Source of the DNA: a bacterium
GTDB lineage: Bacteria; Patescibacteriota; Patescibacteriia; UBA2169
Reading direction: 5' to 3'
Assembly (NCBI GenBank): GCA_002687895.1
Contig: NZBL01000003.1
Span: 20,821-84,820, forward strand
Length of the DNA stretch: 64,000 nt
The translations under genes were made by a program, and so were the position numbers. The notes beneath the pieces were generated by a model. The model worked only from the letters and a program-made list of their open reading frames with translations, was not told the origin of the DNA and ran no database searches. Shown one piece after another: positions 38 through 35,405 of this stretch (position 1 is the stretch's first letter; every line of letters begins with the position of its first letter).

Positions 38-2245
38 ATGAATACAAAAGTTTTAATCACAATTGCGATTGCGCTAATATTGGCAGTGCCGAGTATGGCA
101 CAAGCTAGATTTTATGATCCAAACGATATTTTAACTGATGCAGAATTAAATGATGGAAATGCCTTGTCGCGAACTGCGATTCAAAGATTTTTAGATCAAA
201 AAGGCAGTGTATTAAGAAATACAACAGCACTTGTTAATGGAGTTCCAAAGCTGGTAAGCGAAATGATATATGAATTAGGTCAATCTTATGGGATTAGCCA
301 AAAGTTTTTATTGGCTAAACTTCAGCAAGAACAAGGTCTGATAGAAAAGTCTACAGCATCTGATACTAAATTAGATTGGGCAACAGGATATTCTTGCTTT
401 AGTGGTCGATGCAATGAAAAATATAGGGGAATCTATAAGCAATTAGATGCTGCCGCGGACGTGCAAAGGATTTATAATGAACGCAGCCAGTCAGCAGGAT
501 ATTTTGGTTATCAAAAGGATAAAGAAACTAAAACAAGGGATGGTTTTACAGTAAAGCCCGAAAATCAAGCAACTACAAATCTGTATATTTATACGCCATA
601 CAAAGGATCCTTATCTGGAATAGGAGGCAATTTCTTTTTCTCTAGAGTATGGAACCAATATTTTACAGAACGAATATATCCAGATGGCGCGCTTTTGCGA
701 GATAGCGCAACTGGCGAGTATTGGAAAATTAAGAATAACAAAAGAAGGCAGTATATAACTGACGCAATCTACTTATCTGATCATGCGCCCGAAGACGCTA
801 TCACTGTTCCATCAGAGCGTCTTGTTTATTATCAAATAGGCGAGCCTATTACAATTACAAACAATACTGTGGTCAAAACAAATGATTCTGGAGTTATGTA
901 CCTTTTGTCAGATGGATTAAAGCACCGTTTAGTAGGAAGCAGTGCTTTAGCATCTTTGGGATATCATATTGCAGATACTAGCTCTATTACTCCTACTATT
1001 ATTTCCAAAAACGAACTTAATGATCTAGAAGAAGGCGAACCAATTACAGAACAATCACTATACCCAACTGGAATACTTGTAAAAAGCGATGGACCTAGTA
1101 TTTTTTATGTTAAGCACAGTATTAAGCAATTGCTTTTAGATGAAGCAGTATGGCAGGAAAATTTTAATAAGGAGGAGCCTGTGTATGTATCGCAGTCTGT
1201 TTTAGACGGTTTTACTCTTGGAGATCCACTAAGCCTGAATGAAGGCAGCTTGGTAAAGTCAAAAGACGGCAAATACTATACAATTTCCAATAATAAAATA
1301 AAGAGAATTGCTAGTGCTGATATTGTAAAGCGAGTATATGGAATAGCAAGCTTCAATATAGTTCCAGAAGCAAGCGATGAATTGCTTGAATTAACAGATG
1401 CTGGAGATCCAATTGAATATATTGATGATACAGTAGAAGACCCTATAAATTATATTTCCTATGCTGATCGCCAGCAAAATGTAACAATACAAAAAAATCC
1501 ATATTTTGCATTGTTTGATACTTTGATAGCGCCAAAGAGCATGCTTGCGGGCGCAAATTCAACAGTCACGGTCAAATTCAGGAATAGGGGTGATGTGAAT
1601 TGGCCAGCAGGTCAGGTCTATTTAAAATTAATTGATGAAAATCATCCTACAAGTTCGTTTATAGAAAATAATAGAATTCCTTTGGATACAACAGCTACTT
1701 ATAACCGCTTAGCAATGTTTGATGTAGGAATTACCGCGCCAATTGAACCTCAAAAAATCAAGCAATGGTTTATTTTGGAATATACAGATTCAAGCGGAAC
1801 TATTGTAGAAATGCCAGGTGGGCTTCTAAATCAGGAGATCAACGTGATATCTGATGTATCAGCAGAAGTTGTTGAACATGATCTTCCAGTTGCAATTAAA
1901 GCCAATTCACGGCCAAAGCAAGTTGAAATTCATTTAAAGAACAACAGCCGCAATCAAGTTTGGACATCCCGCCGAGCTGCACTTACACTTAAAGGCGGAG
2001 ATGATACAGAATCTGTATTTTATGATCCAGGAGATTGGATAGATAATGAAACAGTCGGAGTTCCAATTAATCAGACGCTAATTCGCCCGGGTGAAACTGG
2101 AACAATTAAATTCACTCTTGATCCCCGCAATGTACGTCCAGCAATTTATAAACTTGTATTTTCCATGGAATTAAGAGATATAGAAGAAACAGTATATATA
2201 AATGGCGAACAATTTTGGGAGCGCTTAATTAGGGTTGATAAATAA
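38..2245 (+). CDS. Secreted repeat protein with N-terminal signal peptide; N-terminal domain has a GH73/glucosaminidase-like A-x4-E-x-G motif (AKLQQEQGL ... LDWATGY); C-terminal part built of ~45-50 aa tandem repeats centred on G-[DE]-P-[IL]; paralog of 12710..14140
   Basis: ORF track 735 aa; signal-peptide-like N-terminus MNTKVLITIAIALILAVPSMAQA; N-terminal ~180 aa align by eye with ORF 12710..14140 (FYDPNDILTDAELNDGNALSRTAIQRFLDQKGS vs DFNQNNIISDFELEDYNSLSLDSIQRFLEQKGS); repeated motifs YQIGEPITIT / LEEGEPITEQSLYPTGILVKSDGPSIFYV / FTLGDPLSL / TDAGDPIEY. Confidence 0.55.
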   Translation: MNTKVLITIAIALILAVPSMAQARFYDPNDILTDAELNDGNALSRTAIQRFLDQKGSVLRNTTALVNGVPKLVSEMIYELGQSYGISQKFLLAKLQQEQGLIEKSTASDTKLDWATGYSCFSGRCNEKYRGIYKQLDAAADVQRIYNERSQSAGYFGYQKDKETKTRDGFTVKPENQATTNLYIYTPYKGSLSGIGGNFFFSRVWNQYFTERIYPDGALLRDSATGEYWKIKNNKRRQYITDAIYLSDHAPEDAITVPSERLVYYQIGEPITITNNTVVKTNDSGVMYLLSDGLKHRLVGSSALASLGYHIADTSSITPTIISKNELNDLEEGEPITEQSLYPTGILVKSDGPSIFYVKHSIKQLLLDEAVWQENFNKEEPVYVSQSVLDGFTLGDPLSLNEGSLVKSKDGKYYTISNNKIKRIASADIVKRVYGIASFNIVPEASDELLELTDAGDPIEYIDDTVEDPINYISYADRQQNVTIQKNPYFALFDTLIAPKSMLAGANSTVTVKFRNRGDVNWPAGQVYLKLIDENHPTSSFIENNRIPLDTTATYNRLAMFDVGITAPIEPQKIKQWFILEYTDSSGTIVEMPGGLLNQEINVISDVSAEVVEHDLPVAIKANSRPKQVEIHLKNNSRNQVWTSRRAALTLKGGDDTESVFYDPGDWIDNETVGVPINQTLIRPGETGTIKFTLDPRNVRPAIYKLVFSMELRDIEETVYINGEQFWERLIRVDK

Positions 2246-3775: not shown

Positions 3776-3850
3776 TGGAGCAGGTGACGGGATTTGAACC
3801 CGCGATCTTCTGCTTGGGAAGCAGACGTTCTACCACTGAACTACACCTGC
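3776..3850 (-). tRNA. tRNA-Gly (anticodon CCC)
   Basis: Reverse complement GCAGGTGTAGTTCAGTGGTAGAACGTCTGCTTCCCAAGCAGAAGATCGCGGGTTCAAATCCCGTCACCTGCTCCA: 7-bp acceptor stem, GTTCAAATCC T-arm, anticodon loop TTCCCAA, encoded CCA. Confidence 0.85.
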
Positions 3851-3852
3851 AT

Positions 3853-3928
3853 GGAGCCACCTCCCGGAGTCGAACCGGGGACCTACGCATTACGAGTGCG
3901 TCGCTCTAACCATCTGAGCTAAGGTGGC
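3853..3928 (-). tRNA. tRNA-Thr (anticodon CGT)
   Basis: Reverse complement GCCACCTTAGCTCAGATGGTTAGAGCGACGCACTCGTAATGCGTAGGTCCCCGGTTCGACTCCGGGAGGTGGCTCCA: cloverleaf with anticodon loop CTCGTAA, GGTTCGACTCC T-arm, encoded CCA. Confidence 0.85.
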
Positions 3929-5733: not shown

Positions 5734-5807
5734 TCGGGGATCGTCTAATGGTAGGACGCCAGGTTTTGGTCCTGGTAATCGGGGTTCAAATCCCTGTCCC
5801 CGAGCCA
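5734..5807 (+). tRNA. tRNA-Gln (anticodon TTG)
   Basis: TCGGGGATCGTCTAATGGTAGGACGCCAGGTTTTGGTCCTGGTAATCGGGGTTCAAATCCCTGTCCCCGAGCCA: acceptor stem TCGGGGA/TCCCCGA, anticodon loop TTTTGGT, T-arm GGTTCAAATCC, encoded CCA. Confidence 0.8.
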
Positions 5808-5890: not shown

Positions 5891-6119
5891 ACTCGTGAGT
5901 ATTGTACATTGAAAACAACCACATAGCCAAAAAATTTGGCTTAAAAGAAAAGCTTTATCATGAGCTTGAAAGAGGATTTTTTCAAAGTCGTAGGAGATCC
6001 AAGTTTCGTTAGTAGGTTATTCAGAGATTTGGATAATGCCAGAGGGTTTTTAGAGGAGCTTCCAAATACCATATGCGAGACACCCATTTTAATTATGCTA
6101 TAATATAAAGATAAGATTT

Positions 6120-6869
6120 ATGAAAAATACAAAACAAGAGATCATAAAAGAATTAAAACAAGTACATAAAAGCGGTGGTGCAATGGAGAAGTATCACAAA
6201 ACAGGCTCTGGAGCCTATTTAAGGGATATGGTATATGGAGCAAATGACGGAATCATCACTACATTCGCGGTTGTTGCTGGAGTTGCTGGAGCTGGATTAG
6301 ACACTAAAATTGTTTTGATTTTAGGAATAGCAAACTTAGTTGCGGATGGATTTGCCATGGCAACTGGAAACTTTCTTGGCACTAGAAGCGAAAATCAGCT
6401 AATTAAGCGCGAAAGAGAAATGGAGGAATGGGAAATTGAGCATATTCCAGAGGAAGAAAAAAAGGAGATTCAGGCAATCTACGCAAAAAAAGGATTTAAA
6501 GGGAATGACCTTAAGCGAGCGACGCAGATTATTACCAGCAACAAAGAGGCATGGATAGATGAGATGATGATTCATGAGCTTGGAACTGTGCCAGGCGAGG
6601 AAGATCATCCTTTTAAAAATGGCGTGGCAACATTTATTGCGTTTGTAATTGCTGGTTTTTTGCCTTTAGTGCCTTATATATTTGCCTTGGGAAATACTTT
6701 TTACACCGCGATTATTATGACCGTGTTCGCATTATTTGTTGTTGGTGCGCTCCGCAATATTTTCACAAAACAAAATATCATCATTGCAGGGTTAGAAATG
6801 CTTGGAGTTGGGGCAATTGCTGCTGTAGTTGCATATGGCCTAGGATATTGGATTGAAACCTTTGTGTAA
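6120..6869 (+). CDS. VIT1/CCC1-family membrane protein (MbfA-like Fe/Mn transporter)
   Basis: 249 aa; [17 protein letters not shown] motif typical of the VIT family, soluble central E/K-rich segment, C-terminal TM helices. Confidence 0.65.
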
Positions 6870-6879
6870 AACTTAGTTT

Positions 6880-6910
6880 TATTTATGAGGAAACAGAATA
6901 TAACTCTGTT
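6880..6910 (+). terminator. Rho-independent terminator of the VIT-family gene
   Basis: aacagaatataactctgtt hairpin followed by T8. Confidence 0.6.
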
Positions 6911-6956
6911 TTTTTTATGCTTGATTATATGAGCCTAAATATGTTATATTATTGAG

Positions 6957-7385
6957 TCATTTGAAAGGCAAATGATTAAACCTTAAAAATTGAAATGCAT
7001 ATATCTTGGGAGGTGTTATCGTGAAATATGCAAACGTGGTATTGGCATTTATGCTGCTGATTTTTAGTATGCTGTCGTGCGGGGACAAAGGTCCTCCAAC
7101 AGGGCCTGTGCCAGGGAAAGAAGACACGCAACCTGACTCCTGTTTCCAATAGATCGTGGATACCACAAACTTGTCTACCTGATCATCCGCAACCACAATT
7201 TCGACCTTAATCTTAGGGTTAAAGTCAATAACATATTCAGCTCCGCAGTACACCTCTGAACGGCCTCTTTGTTGGCCATATCCTTTTACCTCACCTACGG
7301 TCATTCCAAAGATGCCTGGTTTGTTTAGTGCATCTTTTAGCTCATCAAGAGCATTTGGCCGCAAGATGGCTACTACCATTTTCAT
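6957..7385 (-). CDS. P-II (GlnB/GlnK) family protein with canonical N-terminal 75 aa (T-loop and Tyr present) but a non-canonical C-terminal half (no RTGxxGDGKIFV B-loop); possible pseudogene or rearranged gene
   Basis: MKMVVAILRPNALDELKDALNKPGIFGMTVGEVKGYGQQRGRSEVYCGAEYVIDFNPKIKVEIVVADDQVDKFV matches P-II residues 1-75; none of the three frames downstream encodes the conserved B/C-loop region. Confidence 0.5.
   Translation of the reverse strand: MKMVVAILRPNALDELKDALNKPGIFGMTVGEVKGYGQQRGRSEVYCGAEYVIDFNPKIKVEIVVADDQVDKFVVSTIYWKQESGCVSSFPGTGPVGGPLSPHDSILKISSINANTTFAYFTITPPKIYAFQFLRFNHLPFK
7021..7152 (+). CDS. Small ORF (43 codons, GTG start) encoding a signal-peptide-like N-terminus and a Pro/Gly-rich tail with two Cys; antisense to the 3' half of the P-II-like ORF
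   Basis: Strong SD gggagg 7 nt upstream of GTG; peptide VKYANVVLAFMLLIFSMLSCGDKGPPTGPVPGKEDTQPDSCFQ; local GC higher than the surroundings. Confidence 0.35.
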   Translation: MKYANVVLAFMLLIFSMLSCGDKGPPTGPVPGKEDTQPDSCFQ

Positions 7386-7449
7386 GTCATTACTCCTTTA
7401 CATGAGTTTAAATTGACAAGGTGCCTTGCTATAAAGCTACTATTATGGC

Positions 7450-8973
7450 ATGATTTCGTCAATGCCGCGATTATCACACAAACCGCTATATCGCTTTTTA
7501 GAAACAATCCCAGCCACTTTGGTTTGGGGTAGTTTTATTGGAGCAATAATTTTATCTATTTTCGCGCCATTGATTGCTATATATATCATCATATTATTTG
7601 ATTTGTATTGGCTAATTAAAGTAGTATATTGGCTAGTATACTTATTTAATTCATATCGCCATTATAGAACAGACATAAGAATTAACTGGCTCTCTAAACT
7701 AGAACAAGAAGATCCAATTTCTAATGACACAGCGCAATCGCATTGGAATAATTTATATCATTTAATATTTTTACCTACTTACAAAGAGCCTTTTGAAGTA
7801 CTTGATACAACATTTAAGGGTTTAGTTAATAGCAATTATCCTAAAGATAAATTTATAATTGCATTAGGAGTAGAGGAATGGGATAAAGAGCATGGATTGA
7901 AGGTTGCTCAAAAAATCAAGCAAAAATACGGAAATTACTTTTTTAAATTCTGGATTACTGTTCATCCAAAAAATCTTCCAAATGAGCAAAGAGGCAAAGG
8001 ATCAAACAATGTATTTGCCGCGAAAGCCGCGCAAAAGGAAATTGACAAGCTGAATATTGCATATGAAAAAATAATTGTATCAAGTTTTGATATTGACACA
8101 ATCGCGCATAAAGAATACTTTGGACATCTTACATATAAATTCTTGACCCACCCAAAGCCGCACAACACAAGCTATCAGCCAGTTGCTTTGTTTAACAACA
8201 ATATTTGGAAATCAAATCCATTTACAAGAACAGTTTCCAATGGCACAACATTCTGGCTTTTAACTGATCTCTCGCGTCCAGATCGTTTATTCACATTCTC
8301 ATCTCACTCAATGAGCTGGAAAACATTGGTTGCTGTTGGATTTTGGGAGGCTGATATTGTTACAGAAGATTCGCGCATTTTTCTGCAATGTCTGCTTCAC
8401 TATAATGGCGACTATGCTGTGACTCCAATGTATGTGCCAGTTTCCATGGATACTGTTGAGACAGGATCATTTTGGAGCTCCATATATGCTGTGTATAAGC
8501 AGCAAAGAAGATGGGCATGGGGAGTAGAGAATACCCCATACATGATGTGGCATTTTAGATTTAACAAAAAAATTCCTTTTATGAAAAAATTTAAATACTT
8601 TTTTAATCAAACAGAAGGAGCGTTCTCACTAGCAACTGTTCCAATATTAATTACAATGCTTGGGCGCTTGCCTTTGTATTTTGCAGATAAATCTACTCAA
8701 TCCACCGTAATAGCGCAAAACGCACCAATTGTTTTGGACTGGCTTTTGACAACTGCCATGGTTGGATTGTTCGCAACCGCAGTTATTTCAATTGTATTTT
8801 TACCGCCAATTCCAAAAGGCGAATCAAAGCACCGCTATTTGTGGATGTTTTTACAGTGGTTGCTTTTTCCTGTAAATATGATATTATTCGGCTCTGTGCC
8901 TGCAATTGAGGCGCAGACCCGCTTGGCCACAGGAAAGTATTTAGGCTTTCATGTGACTAAGAAAAATCGTTGA
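7450..8973 (+). CDS. Membrane-embedded family 2 glycosyltransferase of the processive cellulose/chitin-synthase-like type (QxxRW motif)
   Basis: 507 aa; N-terminal TMs, QQRRWAWG (QxxRW) motif, C-terminal TMs. Confidence 0.55.
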   Translation: MISSMPRLSHKPLYRFLETIPATLVWGSFIGAIILSIFAPLIAIYIIILFDLYWLIKVVYWLVYLFNSYRHYRTDIRINWLSKLEQEDPISNDTAQSHWNNLYHLIFLPTYKEPFEVLDTTFKGLVNSNYPKDKFIIALGVEEWDKEHGLKVAQKIKQKYGNYFFKFWITVHPKNLPNEQRGKGSNNVFAAKAAQKEIDKLNIAYEKIIVSSFDIDTIAHKEYFGHLTYKFLTHPKPHNTSYQPVALFNNNIWKSNPFTRTVSNGTTFWLLTDLSRPDRLFTFSSHSMSWKTLVAVGFWEADIVTEDSRIFLQCLLHYNGDYAVTPMYVPVSMDTVETGSFWSSIYAVYKQQRRWAWGVENTPYMMWHFRFNKKIPFMKKFKYFFNQTEGAFSLATVPILITMLGRLPLYFADKSTQSTVIAQNAPIVLDWLLTTAMVGLFATAVISIVFLPPIPKGESKHRYLWMFLQWLLFPVNMILFGSVPAIEAQTRLATGKYLGFHVTKKNR

Positions 8974-12709: not shown

Positions 12710-14140
12710 TTATTCTATATTATCTCCCAAGATCTCTCCTTCTCCATATGTAACAATCAAATCCAATGGATCGCCAATAGGATGCAGGTCAACTACGCTT
12801 TGAGGCACTTCATGTATATTATCCCATGCATAGCCAAGCTTTTCAAATGCTTCGCCTGAAATGACAGCTCTACGTCTTCCATCTGATATCACATATACAG
12901 CAGAAGATTCAGATGAGGTGATGATGGTTCCGTCTTTAAGCTTAAGTCTGCCAGCGTACCCGTATTGGTTGAGCTCGCCTGGATGAATTGCCAAGGGTTT
13001 TGTGTTTCTAAAATTTAAATCAAGTATTGTGCGATCTATAATTCCTTGCCGCTTTCCATCTTGCACGAAAAATACTGCTCCAGTGGAATTGTCTTGAAGA
13101 AGAGCGCCTGTTGGATATGCAGAGGATAATGTGATGTTGTCTCCTATAATGTATAATTCAAGGTCTTCTTCATTTACCTTTATAACTTCCTCCGGATTAA
13201 ATCCTATTGTGCGAAAAACTTCTTGGGACTCTATTCCGCGAATAGTGTCATCTACTAACAGATAGATGGTTCCATAAGGAGCTTGGAGCAGGGAATAATT
13301 AGCAAACTGAATTGAAGGGCCTATTTCATATGTTTCTAATTCATTTTTGCTGACTTGAATTATGCGCGATGAATCATAGCGAGAATATAGTGCTACACGA
13401 GTCTTAAAAGGCCTGCGATTGCCATTCTGAAGCAGCCACACACCTGGCTCGCCTTTTTCCTGCAAAAGGGTTCCATCAGGATAGTTTCTTACAAAGTACC
13501 TGTTCCATATTCTCCAAAAGTTGAAGTTAGCGCCTATTCTTGATCCGCCTCTGTATGGATTATAGGTATATAATACTGCTGTTGCATTATTAACAGGGGT
13601 AACATTATATCCATCTAAGGTTTTTTTGGTTCTTGCAGGACCCCAGCCAGTAAAAGTTCTGCCTAAGGATTTTAGATCTCTTAGGTATGCTACTCGTACT
13701 TTTTCCGCAAAATCTGATACTTGATTATAAAATCCTTTGAAAGGCGCAAGGCTAGGGTCTGATTTTGAGCATGAATCACAAACCGCAAACCCAGTTGCCC
13801 AGTCTAGTTGATTTTGACTAGGGGATTTGTCTGTAATTAATGATTGCTCCTTTTGAAGCATTGCTAAAATTACTTTTGGGCTTATTTGGTAAATCTGTGA
13901 TTCTTCAAATATAATTTGAGAAGCTGGCTTGCGAACTCCGTCAACAACCTCGGTGAATTGTGCTAAAAAGCTTCCTTTTTGTTCTAAAAACCTTTGTATT
14001 GAGTCCAGTGATAGGGAATTGTAGTCTTCTAACTCAAAGTCAGAAATAATATTATTTTGATTAAAATCAGCAGCACTCACAGATAAGAAAGGTGACAAGC
14101 TAAAGATAAATACAATTATAGACGGCACAATTTTTTTCAT
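12710..14140 (-). CDS. Secreted paralog of 38..2245 (GH73-like N-terminal domain plus GDP[IL]-centred repeats)
   Basis: 476 aa; signal peptide MKKIVPSIIVFIFSLSPFLSVSA; AMLQKEQSLITDKS ... LDWATGF aligns with ORF1; repeats IGPSIQ / IIGDNITLSSAYPTGALLQDNSTGAVFFVQDGKRQ / IGDPLDL. Confidence 0.6.
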   Translation of the reverse strand: MKKIVPSIIVFIFSLSPFLSVSAADFNQNNIISDFELEDYNSLSLDSIQRFLEQKGSFLAQFTEVVDGVRKPASQIIFEESQIYQISPKVILAMLQKEQSLITDKSPSQNQLDWATGFAVCDSCSKSDPSLAPFKGFYNQVSDFAEKVRVAYLRDLKSLGRTFTGWGPARTKKTLDGYNVTPVNNATAVLYTYNPYRGGSRIGANFNFWRIWNRYFVRNYPDGTLLQEKGEPGVWLLQNGNRRPFKTRVALYSRYDSSRIIQVSKNELETYEIGPSIQFANYSLLQAPYGTIYLLVDDTIRGIESQEVFRTIGFNPEEVIKVNEEDLELYIIGDNITLSSAYPTGALLQDNSTGAVFFVQDGKRQGIIDRTILDLNFRNTKPLAIHPGELNQYGYAGRLKLKDGTIITSSESSAVYVISDGRRRAVISGEAFEKLGYAWDNIHEVPQSVVDLHPIGDPLDLIVTYGEGEILGDNIE

Positions 14141-14400: not shown

Positions 14401-14574
14401 GACAGTTCTCCTTTAAAAGGGAGTTCTGCGGACGGTAAAAGTAGGGGGACGTGAATTAAATGTAAAGGAGCCAATATAATTATACCTTAATTACAATCAC
14501 TACGTTAACTAGCTCTTTCCATAGGAAGCTAGAATATTGTGTATTTTTCTGTAAAGGTATATACTAAAATTACC

Positions 14575-14808
14575 ATGCAAACACAAGCACAAGTTACCAT
14601 CAATTTAGATAAAACACTCAAAGAGAAAGTTCAAAAAAAGGCACGAAAAAAGGGGATAACAATTTCCTCTCTTACGAATTCTTTTTTTAAGGATTTCGTG
14701 GAAAATGAGCAAACGCTTGTTGATAGACTTGAGGAGCGCATGTTTGATAGTGTACTACAATCAACAAAAGTAAAAAAAGAACTCAGTAATCTTGGAAAAT
14801 TACTATGA
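14575..14808 (+). CDS. Ribbon-helix-helix antitoxin (RelB/DinJ/ParD-like)
   Basis: MQTQAQVTINLDKTLKEKVQKKARKKGITISSLTNSFF: typical RHH N-terminus; 4-nt ATGA overlap with the downstream toxin-like ORF. Confidence 0.6.
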   Translation: MQTQAQVTINLDKTLKEKVQKKARKKGITISSLTNSFFKDFVENEQTLVDRLEERMFDSVLQSTKVKKELSNLGKLL

Positions 14809-15167
14809 GTAAGATTCTATTAACTAGATCTTTTACTCAGGAATTATCTAAACTACGAATCACAACAAAACAGGAAATTATTACGGTTATTGTTCAATAT
14901 GAAAAAGGTCTGCCAGTGTTGTTGGATTTATACTCACCAGAAAAAAATATAAAAGTACTCAAAGGATATATTCGTCATAGGAGAGGGGTGCGAATAGCTG
15001 TAGTCTTAGAAATTCAGAAGCACGTTTATGTGCCTTTTTTTATAGCAAAAAAGACAAGTAGAGAAGGCTGGAATCTGAGTAAATATTCCGAAATCTATTT
15101 ATCATCAAAGATTAGACGCGTGTATAGGGATATTAAAAATCAGCTATATGAAAAAATAACAATTTAA
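14805..15167 (+). CDS. RelE/ParE-superfamily toxin-like protein
   Basis: 120 aa; KVLKGYIRHRRGVRIAVVLEIQKHVYVPFFIAKK resembles the RelE/ParE core (R-rich beta strands); translationally coupled to the RHH gene. Confidence 0.5.
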   Translation: MSKILLTRSFTQELSKLRITTKQEIITVIVQYEKGLPVLLDLYSPEKNIKVLKGYIRHRRGVRIAVVLEIQKHVYVPFFIAKKTSREGWNLSKYSEIYLSSKIRRVYRDIKNQLYEKITI

Positions 15168-28269: not shown

Positions 28270-29319
28270 TTAAGAAGAAAGCACCATGCTTCCAATTGAT
28301 TCAACTTCGCGCAATAAATTAGAATCATCCAATAAAATTCCTGTTCCCCGAACAACTGTTGTTAAAGGATCATCTACCACATGAACAGGCATTTGCAGCT
28401 CTTTTGATATTAAGGAATCAAATCCTTTCAAAAGCGCTCCTCCTCCGGAAAGCAGAATTCCGCTTTCATACAGATCTCCTATAAGCTCGGCAGGCGCGTT
28501 TTCTACTGTTGTGCGGACCGCGTCTACAATTACTCCAACAGGCCTTTTTATTGCTTCTCTTATTTGCTCATCTGTAATTTCAAACTCCTTAGGCAGGCCA
28601 GTTAGCATGTTTCTGCCTTTTACTTTCATCTCGTGCGCTTCATCGCTAGCTACAACAGATCCAATCTTAATTTTGATTTCCTCTGCTGACTTTGAGCCTA
28701 TTGTAATGTTAAAATTCTCTCTTATATAATCCTGTATCGCGCTGTCAAATTCATGTCCTGCTGTTTTAAGGGAATTATAAGAAACAATTCCAGACAAGGA
28801 AATAACCGCGATTGAGGTATTGCCTCCTCCTATTTCCACCACCATTCTGCCGTATGAATCCTGCAGATTCAGCCTGGCTCCTATGGCTGTTGCAACTGGC
28901 TCGTCTATAAGGTGAACTTCGCGCGCGCCTGCGTTGGTAATTGCGTCCTGAACTGCTTTGCGCTCTACCTCTGTAATATCCAAAGGAATGCTTACAATTG
29001 TGCGCGGGCGAGGAGCTATGGTAAACGATCCTCTGTGTATTTTTTCTATGCAGTGCTTTATCAGTTTTTCTGATACTTCAAAATCTGAAATCACTCCATT
29101 AACAATAGGGCCGACCACAGATATATGCGGAGGTGTTTTGCCCATCATTTTTTTCGCGTCCACTCCAACAGCAACCAGTTGATCGCTCCTTGTATTGATT
29201 GCTACAATGCTTGGCTCATTAATAACAATACCCTTATCTTTTACGTAAAATATTGAATTTGAGGTGCCAAGATCAATTCCAATATCTTTTGAAAGGCTTC
29301 CAAATATATTTTTTAACAT
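28270..29319 (-). CDS. mreB: Actin-like rod shape protein MreB
   Basis: 349 aa; IGIDLGTSNS, DIGGGNTSIAV actin-fold motifs. Confidence 0.9.
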   Translation of the reverse strand: MLKNIFGSLSKDIGIDLGTSNSIFYVKDKGIVINEPSIVAINTRSDQLVAVGVDAKKMMGKTPPHISVVGPIVNGVISDFEVSEKLIKHCIEKIHRGSFTIAPRPRTIVSIPLDITEVERKAVQDAITNAGAREVHLIDEPVATAIGARLNLQDSYGRMVVEIGGGNTSIAVISLSGIVSYNSLKTAGHEFDSAIQDYIRENFNITIGSKSAEEIKIKIGSVVASDEAHEMKVKGRNMLTGLPKEFEITDEQIREAIKRPVGVIVDAVRTTVENAPAELIGDLYESGILLSGGGALLKGFDSLISKELQMPVHVVDDPLTTVVRGTGILLDDSNLLREVESIGSMVLSS

Positions 29320-30977: not shown

Positions 30978-32051
30978 TTATCTGGCTAAGCTTACTCCCA
31001 AATACAGCAGATCAGGATTTTCCGGATGGATCTTAAGCTCTGTTGCTGTTCTTGTTGTTGGAAGCATCCGGGGTATCCAATTAAATCCTCCGTCAATTGA
31101 GTGGTAAAGCGTTGATCTTGTTCCATATGTTACTTCTAAAGGATTCACCGGGTCAACTACCAAGGAATATATATTAGCATTGTGCGACCCAGAAATCAAC
31201 GGCAATTCTACCCAGTCTTTGCCATGGTTCAAACTTCGCAATAATCCAAACGCGGACGCATACACAACTCCAGAAGGCACAAGAACAAAATCGCGCCCAT
31301 CATCTGTTCCCGCAAATTCGGTAAAAGCCTCATCAAAAAATTCCCAATTTTTTCCTTCATCTAAGGATCTAACTAACCCTTTTCCTTTTACTAATGCATA
31401 TATTGTTTTTTGAATAGTTGGATGAAATTCCATATCAGTTAGCACAACACTGCCCAAGGACGAATATATCCTCCAAAAAGTGCCACTATCTTCTGATATT
31501 AATATATCTCCTGAATCTGTCGCAGCCAAAAGAATGTTAGGATTATTAGGATTAAGCACTATGCTTGTAATTAATATTGATGAATCATCGCTTGTGTAAA
31601 TAGAGCGCCAATGTATTCCCTGATCCCCTGAAACCACGATCGTGCTTCCAATTGCAGCGTATATAACTTTTGGATTGTCTGGATGTATGGCAATATCCGT
31701 TATATGCATGTTTGATAGTATCAAATCCCAAAAATGCCCTTTGTTCCAGCTTACCCACAAGCCTGCACGATCGCTTATGGCAAATACTTTATCAGGATCA
31801 TCTGAAGAAAATATAATCTCTTTTATATCAATTGATCCAATTGTTTTTTTAGATGTTCTGTCAGCAAAAATTGTTGATCTATGCTCCCAGGTCTCGCCTT
31901 TATTTTGGGTTACCCAAACTCCTCCATCTGCTTCTGTCTGAACTGCTCCTGGAGTGCATGCCGCGCCTAAAAACACTAATAATGCGGCAATTGATAATAA
32001 TTTTGTTTTTGTCATATAGATATAATAGATTGCTCTGCAACCAATTGCCAA
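30978..32051 (-). CDS. Secreted/lipoprotein-like beta-propeller protein with BNR/Ycf48-like W-containing repeats
   Basis: 357 aa; signal peptide plus GAAC; repeated GxxW motifs (GETWEHRS, GHFWDL, GIHWRS, GTFWRI, GKNWEF, GKDWVE, GGFNWIP). Confidence 0.45.
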   Translation of the reverse strand: MAIGCRAIYYIYMTKTKLLSIAALLVFLGAACTPGAVQTEADGGVWVTQNKGETWEHRSTIFADRTSKKTIGSIDIKEIIFSSDDPDKVFAISDRAGLWVSWNKGHFWDLILSNMHITDIAIHPDNPKVIYAAIGSTIVVSGDQGIHWRSIYTSDDSSILITSIVLNPNNPNILLAATDSGDILISEDSGTFWRIYSSLGSVVLTDMEFHPTIQKTIYALVKGKGLVRSLDEGKNWEFFDEAFTEFAGTDDGRDFVLVPSGVVYASAFGLLRSLNHGKDWVELPLISGSHNANIYSLVVDPVNPLEVTYGTRSTLYHSIDGGFNWIPRMLPTTRTATELKIHPENPDLLYLGVSLAR

Positions 32052-34368: not shown

Positions 34369-34395
34369 AACGTTCCATACGGTGTGGAACGTTAA
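34367..34395 (-). terminator. Perfect palindrome hairpin at the 3' end of the second mreB
   Basis: ttaacgttcca-tacggtg-tggaacgttaa overlapping the stop codon; A-run on plus gives U-run on minus. Confidence 0.5.
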
Positions 34396-35405
34396 CTCGC
34401 GACTAAAATACTGCGCTTATATGATTCAAGATTCTCCAAGGCAACTCCAGTGCCTTTTGCAACGCATAACAATGCCTCATCAGCAGTATAGGCTGGAACA
34501 CCAGTTGCCTGCGCAATTAAGCGATCCATATTTCTGAGCAAAGATGATCCGCCTGATAAAACTATGCCTTTATCAATCACGTCTGCAGATAATTCCGGAG
34601 GCGTGCTTTGCAGTACTGTTTTAACAGATGAAATAATTCCTTCTAGTTCAGCTTGAATAGCTTCTGTTACGTCGTCTGATGAGACAGTAACTGTGCGCGG
34701 TAATCCAGATACCATGTCTCGGCCCCGTACTTCTGTTGACATCTTTTTCTGGAGATATAAGGCAGAGCCAATGTTGATTTTAATTTCTTCCGCGCTTCGC
34801 TCGCCTATTGCTAAATTATATTTTTTACGTATATGCTCGCTAATCGCGTTGTCAAACCTATTGCCTCCAATCCTGACTGAATTATTTGCAACAATTCCGC
34901 CTAAAGAAATAACTGCCATTTCACTTGTGCCGCCGCCCATGTCTATTATCATATGCCCGCTTGCTGATCCAATTGGAATGTTAGCGCCGATTGCTGCGGC
35001 TATTGGCTCTTTTATAATATAAGCTGCTTTTGCGCCACCAGCGATTGTAGCATCAATGACTGCGCGCCTTTCTGTTGAAGTAATTCCAGCTGGAACAGCT
35101 ACCATGACTTCTGGCCTGAATAACCTAACTGATCCAACTGCCTTGTTGATGAAATACTTTAGCATTGCTTCTGTTGTTTTGTAATCAGCAATCACACCCT
35201 CGCGCAAAGGGCGTGACGCCACAATAGTATCAGGTGTTCTTCCAAGCATTTCTTTGGCATCATCTCCAACTGCAAGCACTTGCTTGTCATTCAAAGAAAC
35301 CGCAACAACAGACGGTTCATTCAAAACAATGCCTTTTCCAGGCAAATGAACCAATGTGTTTGCTGTTCCAAGATCTATACCAATTTTATTTACAAATATA
35401 CTCAT
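34392..35405 (-). CDS. Second actin-like MreB/Mbl paralog
   Basis: 337 aa; IGIDLGTANT, DMGGGTSEMAV; about 45 percent identical by eye to the mreB at 28270..29319. Confidence 0.85.
   Translation of the reverse strand: MSIFVNKIGIDLGTANTLVHLPGKGIVLNEPSVVAVSLNDKQVLAVGDDAKEMLGRTPDTIVASRPLREGVIADYKTTEAMLKYFINKAVGSVRLFRPEVMVAVPAGITSTERRAVIDATIAGGAKAAYIIKEPIAAAIGANIPIGSASGHMIIDMGGGTSEMAVISLGGIVANNSVRIGGNRFDNAISEHIRKKYNLAIGERSAEEIKINIGSALYLQKKMSTEVRGRDMVSGLPRTVTVSSDDVTEAIQAELEGIISSVKTVLQSTPPELSADVIDKGIVLSGGSSLLRNMDRLIAQATGVPAYTADEALLCVAKGTGVALENLESYKRSILVAS

Follow-up and report, generated by a model that had tools for sequence, protein, structure and literature searches.

The question raised by this locus is whether an open reading frame (ORF) that public pipelines call 'nitrogen regulatory protein P-II' or 'transcriptional regulator' still represents a P-II (GlnB/GlnK) gene. 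The names call for caution in annotation, because nitrogen sensing could be attributed in error to a Patescibacteria lineage. The ORF belongs to a stretch of 64,000 nucleotides (64 kb, here called the window), and a mini-ORF lies antisense to its 3' part (Table 1). Here it is proposed, with considerable confidence, that the 142-codon ORF is a chimeric P-II pseudogene next to the stub of a lipoprotein gene, located at a rearrangement-prone locus in a marine Patescibacteria lineage. As a kind of feature, such a pseudogene or chimeric ORF is already known and corresponds to ordinary genome decay.

Table 1. Positions of the features at and around the P-II-like ORF (window numbering unless the L010 contig is named; SD, Shine-Dalgarno-like site)
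Feature	Position	Strand	Remarks
VIT1-family gene, conserved left flank of the variable slot	6120..6869	+	Pfam; 77-81% identical to the L009 and L010 products
Promoter-like site (TTGATT, 18 nt, TG-TATATT)	6921..6950	+	Consensus match only, upstream of the mini-ORF
Chimeric P-II ORF	6957-7385	-	142 aa
Read-through tail, ~62-64 codons	6957..7151	-	Antisense to the mini-ORF, then AT-rich intergenic DNA to the first stop
Mini-ORF SD, GGGAGG	7008-7013	+	7-nt spacer to GTG
Mini-ORF, 43 codons	7021-7152	+	GTG 7021, stop TAG 7150-7152
Mini-ORF, putative lipoprotein signal peptide	7021-7077	+	
Mini-ORF, putative lipobox Cys20 codon	7078-7080	+	
P-II (GlnB/GlnK) 5' fragment, codons 1 to ~78-82	7140..7385	-	Pfam and GlnB tblastn
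Probable rearrangement breakpoint	7140..7152		End of P-II homology and mini-ORF stop codon
Piece upstream of the P-II start, 76 bp	7386..7461		Contains the P-II SD and TTGACA
P-II SD, AAGGAG	7393-7398	-	
TTGACA facing GT2	7413-7418	+	
Family-2 glycosyltransferase gene (GT2), conserved right flank	7462..8973	+	Pfam; directly after the ABC-2 permease gene in relatives
L010 lipoprotein ORF	L010:1900-2304	+	Just downstream of VIT1; same position and strand as the mini-ORF

The initial annotation had placed a P-II-like sequence in residues 1-75 and had considered the C-terminus as replaced. The homology is indeed restricted to the N-terminal part: the Pfam profile PF00543 (P-II) covers only residues 1-75 of ORF 6957-7385 on the minus strand, which correspond to profile positions 1-72 of 102 (E = 3e-17), and E. 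coli GlnB used as a tblastn query matches with its residues 1-82 at 7385..7140. The limit at residue 75 is that of the Pfam match, but the homology itself probably extends to residues 78-82; aligned with nine homologues, the 142-aa protein is family-like up to '...VVADDQVDKFVVSTI' and departs after residue ~78. The fragment keeps beta1, alpha1, beta2, the T-loop, beta3 and alpha2, with 58-62% identity to normal P-II proteins of 112 aa. The B-loop (GKIGDGKIF in the nine homologues) and the RIRTGE segment are missing from the 142-aa protein in this alignment, and neither the B-loop pattern T-G-x-x-G-D-G-K-I-F nor the C-terminal R-I-R-T-G-E occurs in the ORF or in the six frames of the window. 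The ORF does not match the full-length P-II profile (~102-112 residues, with a beta-alpha-beta-beta-alpha-beta core). For the P-II C-terminal third, tblastn gave only chance-level matches (E >= 0.2) in all six frames of both the region and the whole 64 kb.

A frameshift does not account for this loss, as no frame contains the missing C-terminal sequence; on the same observation, an intron-like interruption and an invertible segment within the window were also rejected as candidates. Singleton P-II ORFs with aberrant C-termini are common in metagenome protein sets, which would fit an assembly chimera or a sequencing frameshift in a normal P-II gene, but the probability of such an artefact is negligible here. 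The identical 142-aa protein was found on at least 21 contigs (37 blocks) of ENA, JGI, Logan and NCBI assemblies. Seven loci fetched from different pipelines (ENA megahit, JGI, Logan and NCBI MAG) share 99.95-99.99% DNA identity with the window over 7-12 kb, having no differences inside 6870-7461. For 7020-7160, where a check for an assembly error had been suggested, the seven loci from independent assemblies, all >99.9% identical to the window, show no artefact. With copies of the locus >99.9% identical, the population is nearly clonal and offers no divergent alleles for dN/dS.

As in normal P-II proteins, the fragment keeps G35, G37, Q39, G41, E44, Y46, G48, Y51, P57 and K58. Unlike the family, it has R38, H42 and R47 substituted and has no amtB, glnA or other partner nearby, and 62-64 unrelated residues replace the B-loop (GxxGDGKIF), beta4 and the C-terminal hairpin (RIRTGE). 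The T-loop, which had been described as 'textbook', falls somewhat short of this: Q39, Y51 and K58 are present, and R38Q, H42R and R47C change positions at which R, H and R are found in 159/164, 154/164 and 164/164 homologue segments, respectively. At the near-invariant columns (>= 90% conserved), the fragment deviates at 8 of 35, compared with a median of 1 among the 164 homologue segments, only 7 of which are as deviant.

The nucleotide site of P-II proteins is formed by the B-loop and the C-terminal arginines together with R38. Because the fragment has no B-loop, beta4 or C-terminal hairpin, it is missing parts on which the fold of the subunit, the sheets of the trimer and the nucleotide site depend, and would be unable to act as a P-II protein. 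In P-II, the sheet of each subunit is completed by beta4 and the C-terminal beta5-beta6 hairpin, which also link the sheets within the trimer, and in GlnK it is Arg47 that inserts into AmtB and plugs it (PMC6243067). With these elements missing or substituted, 8/35 deviations at conserved columns, and no amtB or target genes in the window, canonical P-II function is excluded for the fragment.

P0003, the nearest of the P-II relatives examined, is encoded at the head of a glnK-amtB operon, and a neighbourhood with amtB, glnA or another target is typical, though not obligatory, for P-II genes. As had been stated initially for glnA and amtB, no such partner was found in the window: tblastn did not find AmtB in the 64 kb, and a Pfam survey of most window ORFs of at least 110 aa revealed no nitrogen-metabolism or known P-II target genes. 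The genes found in the survey include those for peptidoglycan synthesis, ribosomal proteins, aminoacyl-tRNA synthetases and type IV pili, as well as many glycosyltransferases. The Fmt-Def-PriA-Memo block, FtsE and the rotamase gene were also covered. Separately, two MreB paralogues, 28270-29319 (minus strand) and 34392-35405 (minus strand), are present within 6 kb, with MreC, PBP2 and RodA/FtsW-type genes.

The tail of the ORF has no homologues among 5.8 billion clusters or 1.84 billion representatives, apart from the identical protein. A word-indexed protein search retrieved 13 proteins, which were the identical sequence and P-II proteins of 112-122 aa (mostly 112), the non-identical ones having at most 62% identity and at most 82% query coverage. 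Similarly, an exhaustive phmmer search of the 1.84 billion representatives found 6996 P-II relatives, none of them matching the tail. Several of the top phmmer matches also end in odd C-termini; of these, P0016, P0019 and P0029 look like frameshift or chimera products, each an unrelated singleton, and P0014 and P0015 are tandem P-II fusions. As an observation on the library itself, the representatives at 50% identity are enriched in P-II ORFs of aberrant structure (chimeras, frameshift-like tails, and fusions of two or three P-II domains in tandem), and such uncollapsed singletons can mislead searches for 'variant' P-II families.

The two parts of the ORF also differ in coding character. The P-II fragment has a native-like codon score of 0.24 bits/codon (0.32 +/- 0.13 for the window genes), and the tail has 0.05 bits/codon, under the 5th percentile of window genes. 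A stop-free run of 64 codons has p of about 0.04 in non-gene frames of the window; this length is a mild coincidence and no evidence of selection. An AlphaFold2 model (monomer, small alignment) of the 142-aa protein has a mean pLDDT of 44, with the expected beta-alpha-beta...beta-alpha order in the N-terminal part. Residues 82-142 have a pLDDT of 26-36 and a single 3-residue strand at 132-134 as secondary structure, and the tail is predicted to be disordered.

A non-canonical P-II regulator had been one of the readings offered for this ORF, in which a functional P-II-derived protein would keep the N-terminal beta-alpha-beta-T-loop-beta-alpha module and have a new C-terminal segment in place of beta4 and the nucleotide-binding loops. 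In favour of this, the ORF is open and preceded by a strong SD, its N-terminal part has native-like codon usage, the population in which it is fixed has been sampled widely, and it retains most of the invariant P-II residues (among them Q39, K58 and Y51). These features are outweighed by a tail with no homologue in either collection (5.8 billion clusters and 1.84 billion representatives) and predicted as disordered within a model that is poor as a whole (mean pLDDT 44), by the missing elements of the fold, the trimer and the ATP/2-OG site (PMC6243067), and by R38Q, H42R and R47C, the lack of a partner gene in the window, and the lack of P-II at this locus in relatives. A functional regulator is accordingly very unlikely. 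The pseudogene reading, which had also been offered, is supported by the loss of the C-terminus, the unshared tail and the absence of P-II from the locus of relatives.

The ortholog comparison that had been recommended was anchored on GT2 (7462-8973), and relatives with 71-87% identity in GT2 were collected from genomes, metagenomes and a protein collection; the region upstream of GT2 was visible in eight of them. In seven of the eight, an ABC ATPase gene is followed by an ABC-2 permease gene and GT2 on the same strand (L009, L010, L015, L021, L024/L022, L025/L023 and the P0172 contig), the flanking GT2 being 74-87% identical. The slot contains a surface-protein gene and/or the ABC transporter operon, with large secreted or surface proteins encoded upstream of the ABC genes. 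The two closest relatives, L009 and L010, keep VIT1: in L009 it is followed by the ABC ATPase, permease and GT2 genes, and in L010 the order is FtsX, VIT1, lipoprotein/Ig-like surface-protein ORFs (GC 0.42-0.50), ABC ATPase, permease and GT2. The downstream side (Fmt, Def, PriA, Memo-like and others) is syntenic with the window, with extra ORFs between GT2 and Fmt in the P0172 contig and L025. In L014, the eighth relative, the GT2 orthologue is immediately preceded by an IS200-like Y1 transposase (L014:852-1535, plus strand; PF01797, E = 3.5e-13), and this junction appears to have been rearranged independently. The VIT1-GT2 slot is thereby documented as rearrangement-prone, with surface-protein genes, the ABC transporter, a transposase or the P-II fragment alternating among relatives.

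None of the eight relatives has a P-II gene at the orthologous locus. The comparison was intended to look for an intact 112-aa P-II; the seven ABC-carrying relatives have surface-protein and/or ABC genes instead. The proposal that foreign DNA was inserted into a resident P-II gene finds no support in this observation. Because the orthologous loci of seven relatives have no P-II, the P-II piece itself appears, from gene order, to be the newcomer or a translocated element. DNA homology between the window and L010 stops at the VIT1 stop (6859) and resumes at ~7460-7462, position 7460 being two bases before the GT2 start. Neither the ABC genes nor the L010 surface protein left a remnant that could be found in the window, and no intermediate state or source of the P-II fragment was found, the nearest relative having a GT2 only 87% identical.

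Some features of the relatives and of the left flank are worth recording separately. The surface lipoprotein/Ig-like gene of L010 (L010:1900-4215, plus strand) is broken up into a series of three or four ORFs (134, 295, 238 and 78 aa) and has a GC content of 0.42-0.50 versus 0.35-0.39; it may be decaying or carry assembly frameshifts. L009 (CAYOXH010000024.1) and L010 (CAZXOU010000008.1) are titled 'uncultured Gammaproteobacteria bacterium', labels or bins that look wrong; both have 73-80% DNA identity to the window over VIT1, GT2 and Fmt and are syntenic with the window and with Patescibacteria loci. In the window, a tRNA-Gln(ttg) gene (5734-5807, plus strand) lies within the 400 bp that separate FtsX from VIT1, so that a single gene stands between it and the variable slot.

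The mini-ORF on the opposite strand is as the initial annotation had described it in its start, SD and spacer, as is the GC shift of this region (0.50-0.52 over 7050-7199 against roughly 0.38 nearby), which is due to Gly/Pro codons. The described signal-peptide-like N-terminus, the Gly/Pro-rich 24-residue tail and the two cysteines also hold. The product is MKYANVVLAFMLLIFSMLS followed by CGDKGPPTGPVPGKEDTQPDSCFQ, with a mature part of 24 Gly/Pro-rich residues and the second Cys at position 41, and MKYANVVLAFMLLIFSMLSC, which contains Cys20, fits a regular expression based on the PROSITE rule for lipoboxes. The sequence features of a lipoprotein precursor are all present: an n-region with positive charge, a hydrophobic core and, in the first 15-35 residues, a lipobox ([LVI..][AST..][GAS]C). 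As in precursors of the Lgt/LspA pathway, the n-region contains Lys and is followed by a hydrophobic core, M-L-S-C at the putative cleavage site and, after Cys+1, a tether rich in Gly and Pro; unlike them, the product has only 24 residues after the Cys, no homologue and an end at the breakpoint. The window contains 1831 start/ORF pairs of at least 30 aa, of which 59 show an SD-like site; about 8 ORFs fit the loose lipobox pattern, and only the mini-ORF combines both.

No homologues of the mini-ORF were found in the protein database. Its codon score is -0.08 bits/codon, under the 5th percentile of window genes; the scores on the two strands of 7021-7152 (+0.05 and -0.08) are both below this percentile and do not tell the strands apart. 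A promoter-like site is located upstream, in a region where the count of such matches is no higher than the shuffled expectation. The L010 lipoprotein gene, which begins with MRRFLRVFVVSFLVAC-SGGKPDNSVGPITGTDESLLC, also has cysteines at Cys+1 and Cys+22. BLASTP of the mini-ORF against L010:1900-2304 gave no alignment, and the local DNA alignment of the VIT1-downstream regions of the window and L010 scored 22, not significantly different from shuffles (19.2 +/- 2.6). Because these similarities are not significant, we infer the derivation of the mini-ORF from a resident lipoprotein gene, and its position, strand and type of signal peptide suggest that it is most likely the 5' stub of a former resident surface lipoprotein gene.

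A genuine, complete small lipoprotein gene, with only the P-II gene as a remnant, would be the alternative for the mini-ORF. Entericidin-type lipoprotein precursors have 41-48 aa, a size comparable to that of the mini-ORF. The strong SD, the GTG start, the n-region Lys, the 15-residue hydrophobic core, the lipobox Cys and the promoter-like site upstream would suit such a gene, and the window contains at least one clear lipoprotein gene at another place (30978-32015). It is nevertheless unlikely, given that the mini-ORF has no homologue and a codon score below the 5th percentile (-0.08), that its stop lies at the breakpoint inside P-II-derived sequence, as for a truncated gene, and that a long lipoprotein gene with several domains occupies this position in the closest relative. 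A stub is more likely; judging from its sequence, it has everything needed for expression and may yield the 24-residue lipopeptide as a by-product.

The stop codon of the mini-ORF (TAG, 7150-7152, plus strand) is antisense to P-II codons I78-Y79. Because the end of P-II homology coincides with this stop, two convergent genes would have been fused at one breakpoint. Overlapping genes, another of the initial readings, are present only in the trivial sense of two truncated convergent ORFs that cross one junction. Only short chance-level matches to repeats or mobile-element ends were found at the junction, Rfam gave no match in 6000-8000, and a scan of 6700-7600 found no terminator. Over the whole window, Rfam matched three tRNAs only; besides the tRNA-Gln, these are a tRNA-Gly and a tRNA-Thr at 3776-3928 (minus strand).

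From these junctions, the order and mechanism of events can be inferred as follows. The linkage of ABC and GT2 genes would be ancestral and the VIT1-GT2 slot variable. In the window lineage, about 2-4 kb with the surface-protein and two-gene ABC DNA would have been lost, leaving of the surface-protein gene the promoter-proximal 43 codons with the SD, the start, the lipoprotein signal peptide and a Gly/Pro linker. A piece of ~320 bp (about 7140-7461), comprising the upstream region, the ribosome-binding site and the first ~80 codons of a P-II gene, would now lie reversed between VIT1 and GT2. The two truncated convergent genes would be joined at one breakpoint (about 7140-7152), each frame crossing the junction to the first chance stop, which would yield the 64-residue nonsense tail of P-II and place the mini-ORF stop inside P-II sequence. 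The simplest history would be a single deletion between the lipoprotein gene and a convergent glnK(-amtB) unit; alternatively, a filler fragment could have been captured during repair.

The 142-aa ORF has lost an essential coding part compared with all homologues, and the replacement is unconserved, as expected of a gene remnant. As in gene remnants of reduced genomes, the 5' part of a gene reads through a junction to a chance stop and the new part has no homologue, and the locus differs among relatives, the slot of one of them holding a transposase. Unlike typical gene remnants, the fragment is still open, its SD is intact and it is annotated as an intact P-II or 'transcriptional regulator'. 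Because the 80 codons are still open, with native-like codon usage and a good SD, either the decay of P-II is recent or the fragment is not entirely neutral; both this ORF and the mini-ORF may still be expressed. A new role for a translated and retained chimeric ORF could be that of a decoy or adaptor in an ultra-small symbiont, made of a P-II-derived T-loop module with a novel disordered tail, or of an antisense convergent-transcription switch in which the 76-bp piece drives GT2, and either role is highly improbable.

The 76-bp piece upstream of the P-II start probably arrived together with the P-II fragment. It might now provide a promoter for GT2, whose operon has been lost, but the idea is speculative, given that the TTGACA facing GT2 is separated by 19 nt from the nearest -10-like hexamer.

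Two large proteins of the window, of 735 aa (38-2245, plus strand) and 476 aa (12710-14140, minus strand), have no Pfam matches; a signal peptide is present at the N-terminus of the 476-aa protein. A single L024 protein is matched by both (32% and 71% identity, respectively), and they appear to form a lineage-specific surface-protein family. Between the gene for the 476-aa secreted protein and a WecG/NUDIX gene, two overlapping small ORFs (14539-14808 and 14805-15167, plus strand; 89 and 120 aa) are arranged like a toxin-antitoxin pair, the 120-aa product having no Pfam match. In L024, the equivalent of this gap contains a different ORF, of 101 aa and on the other strand.
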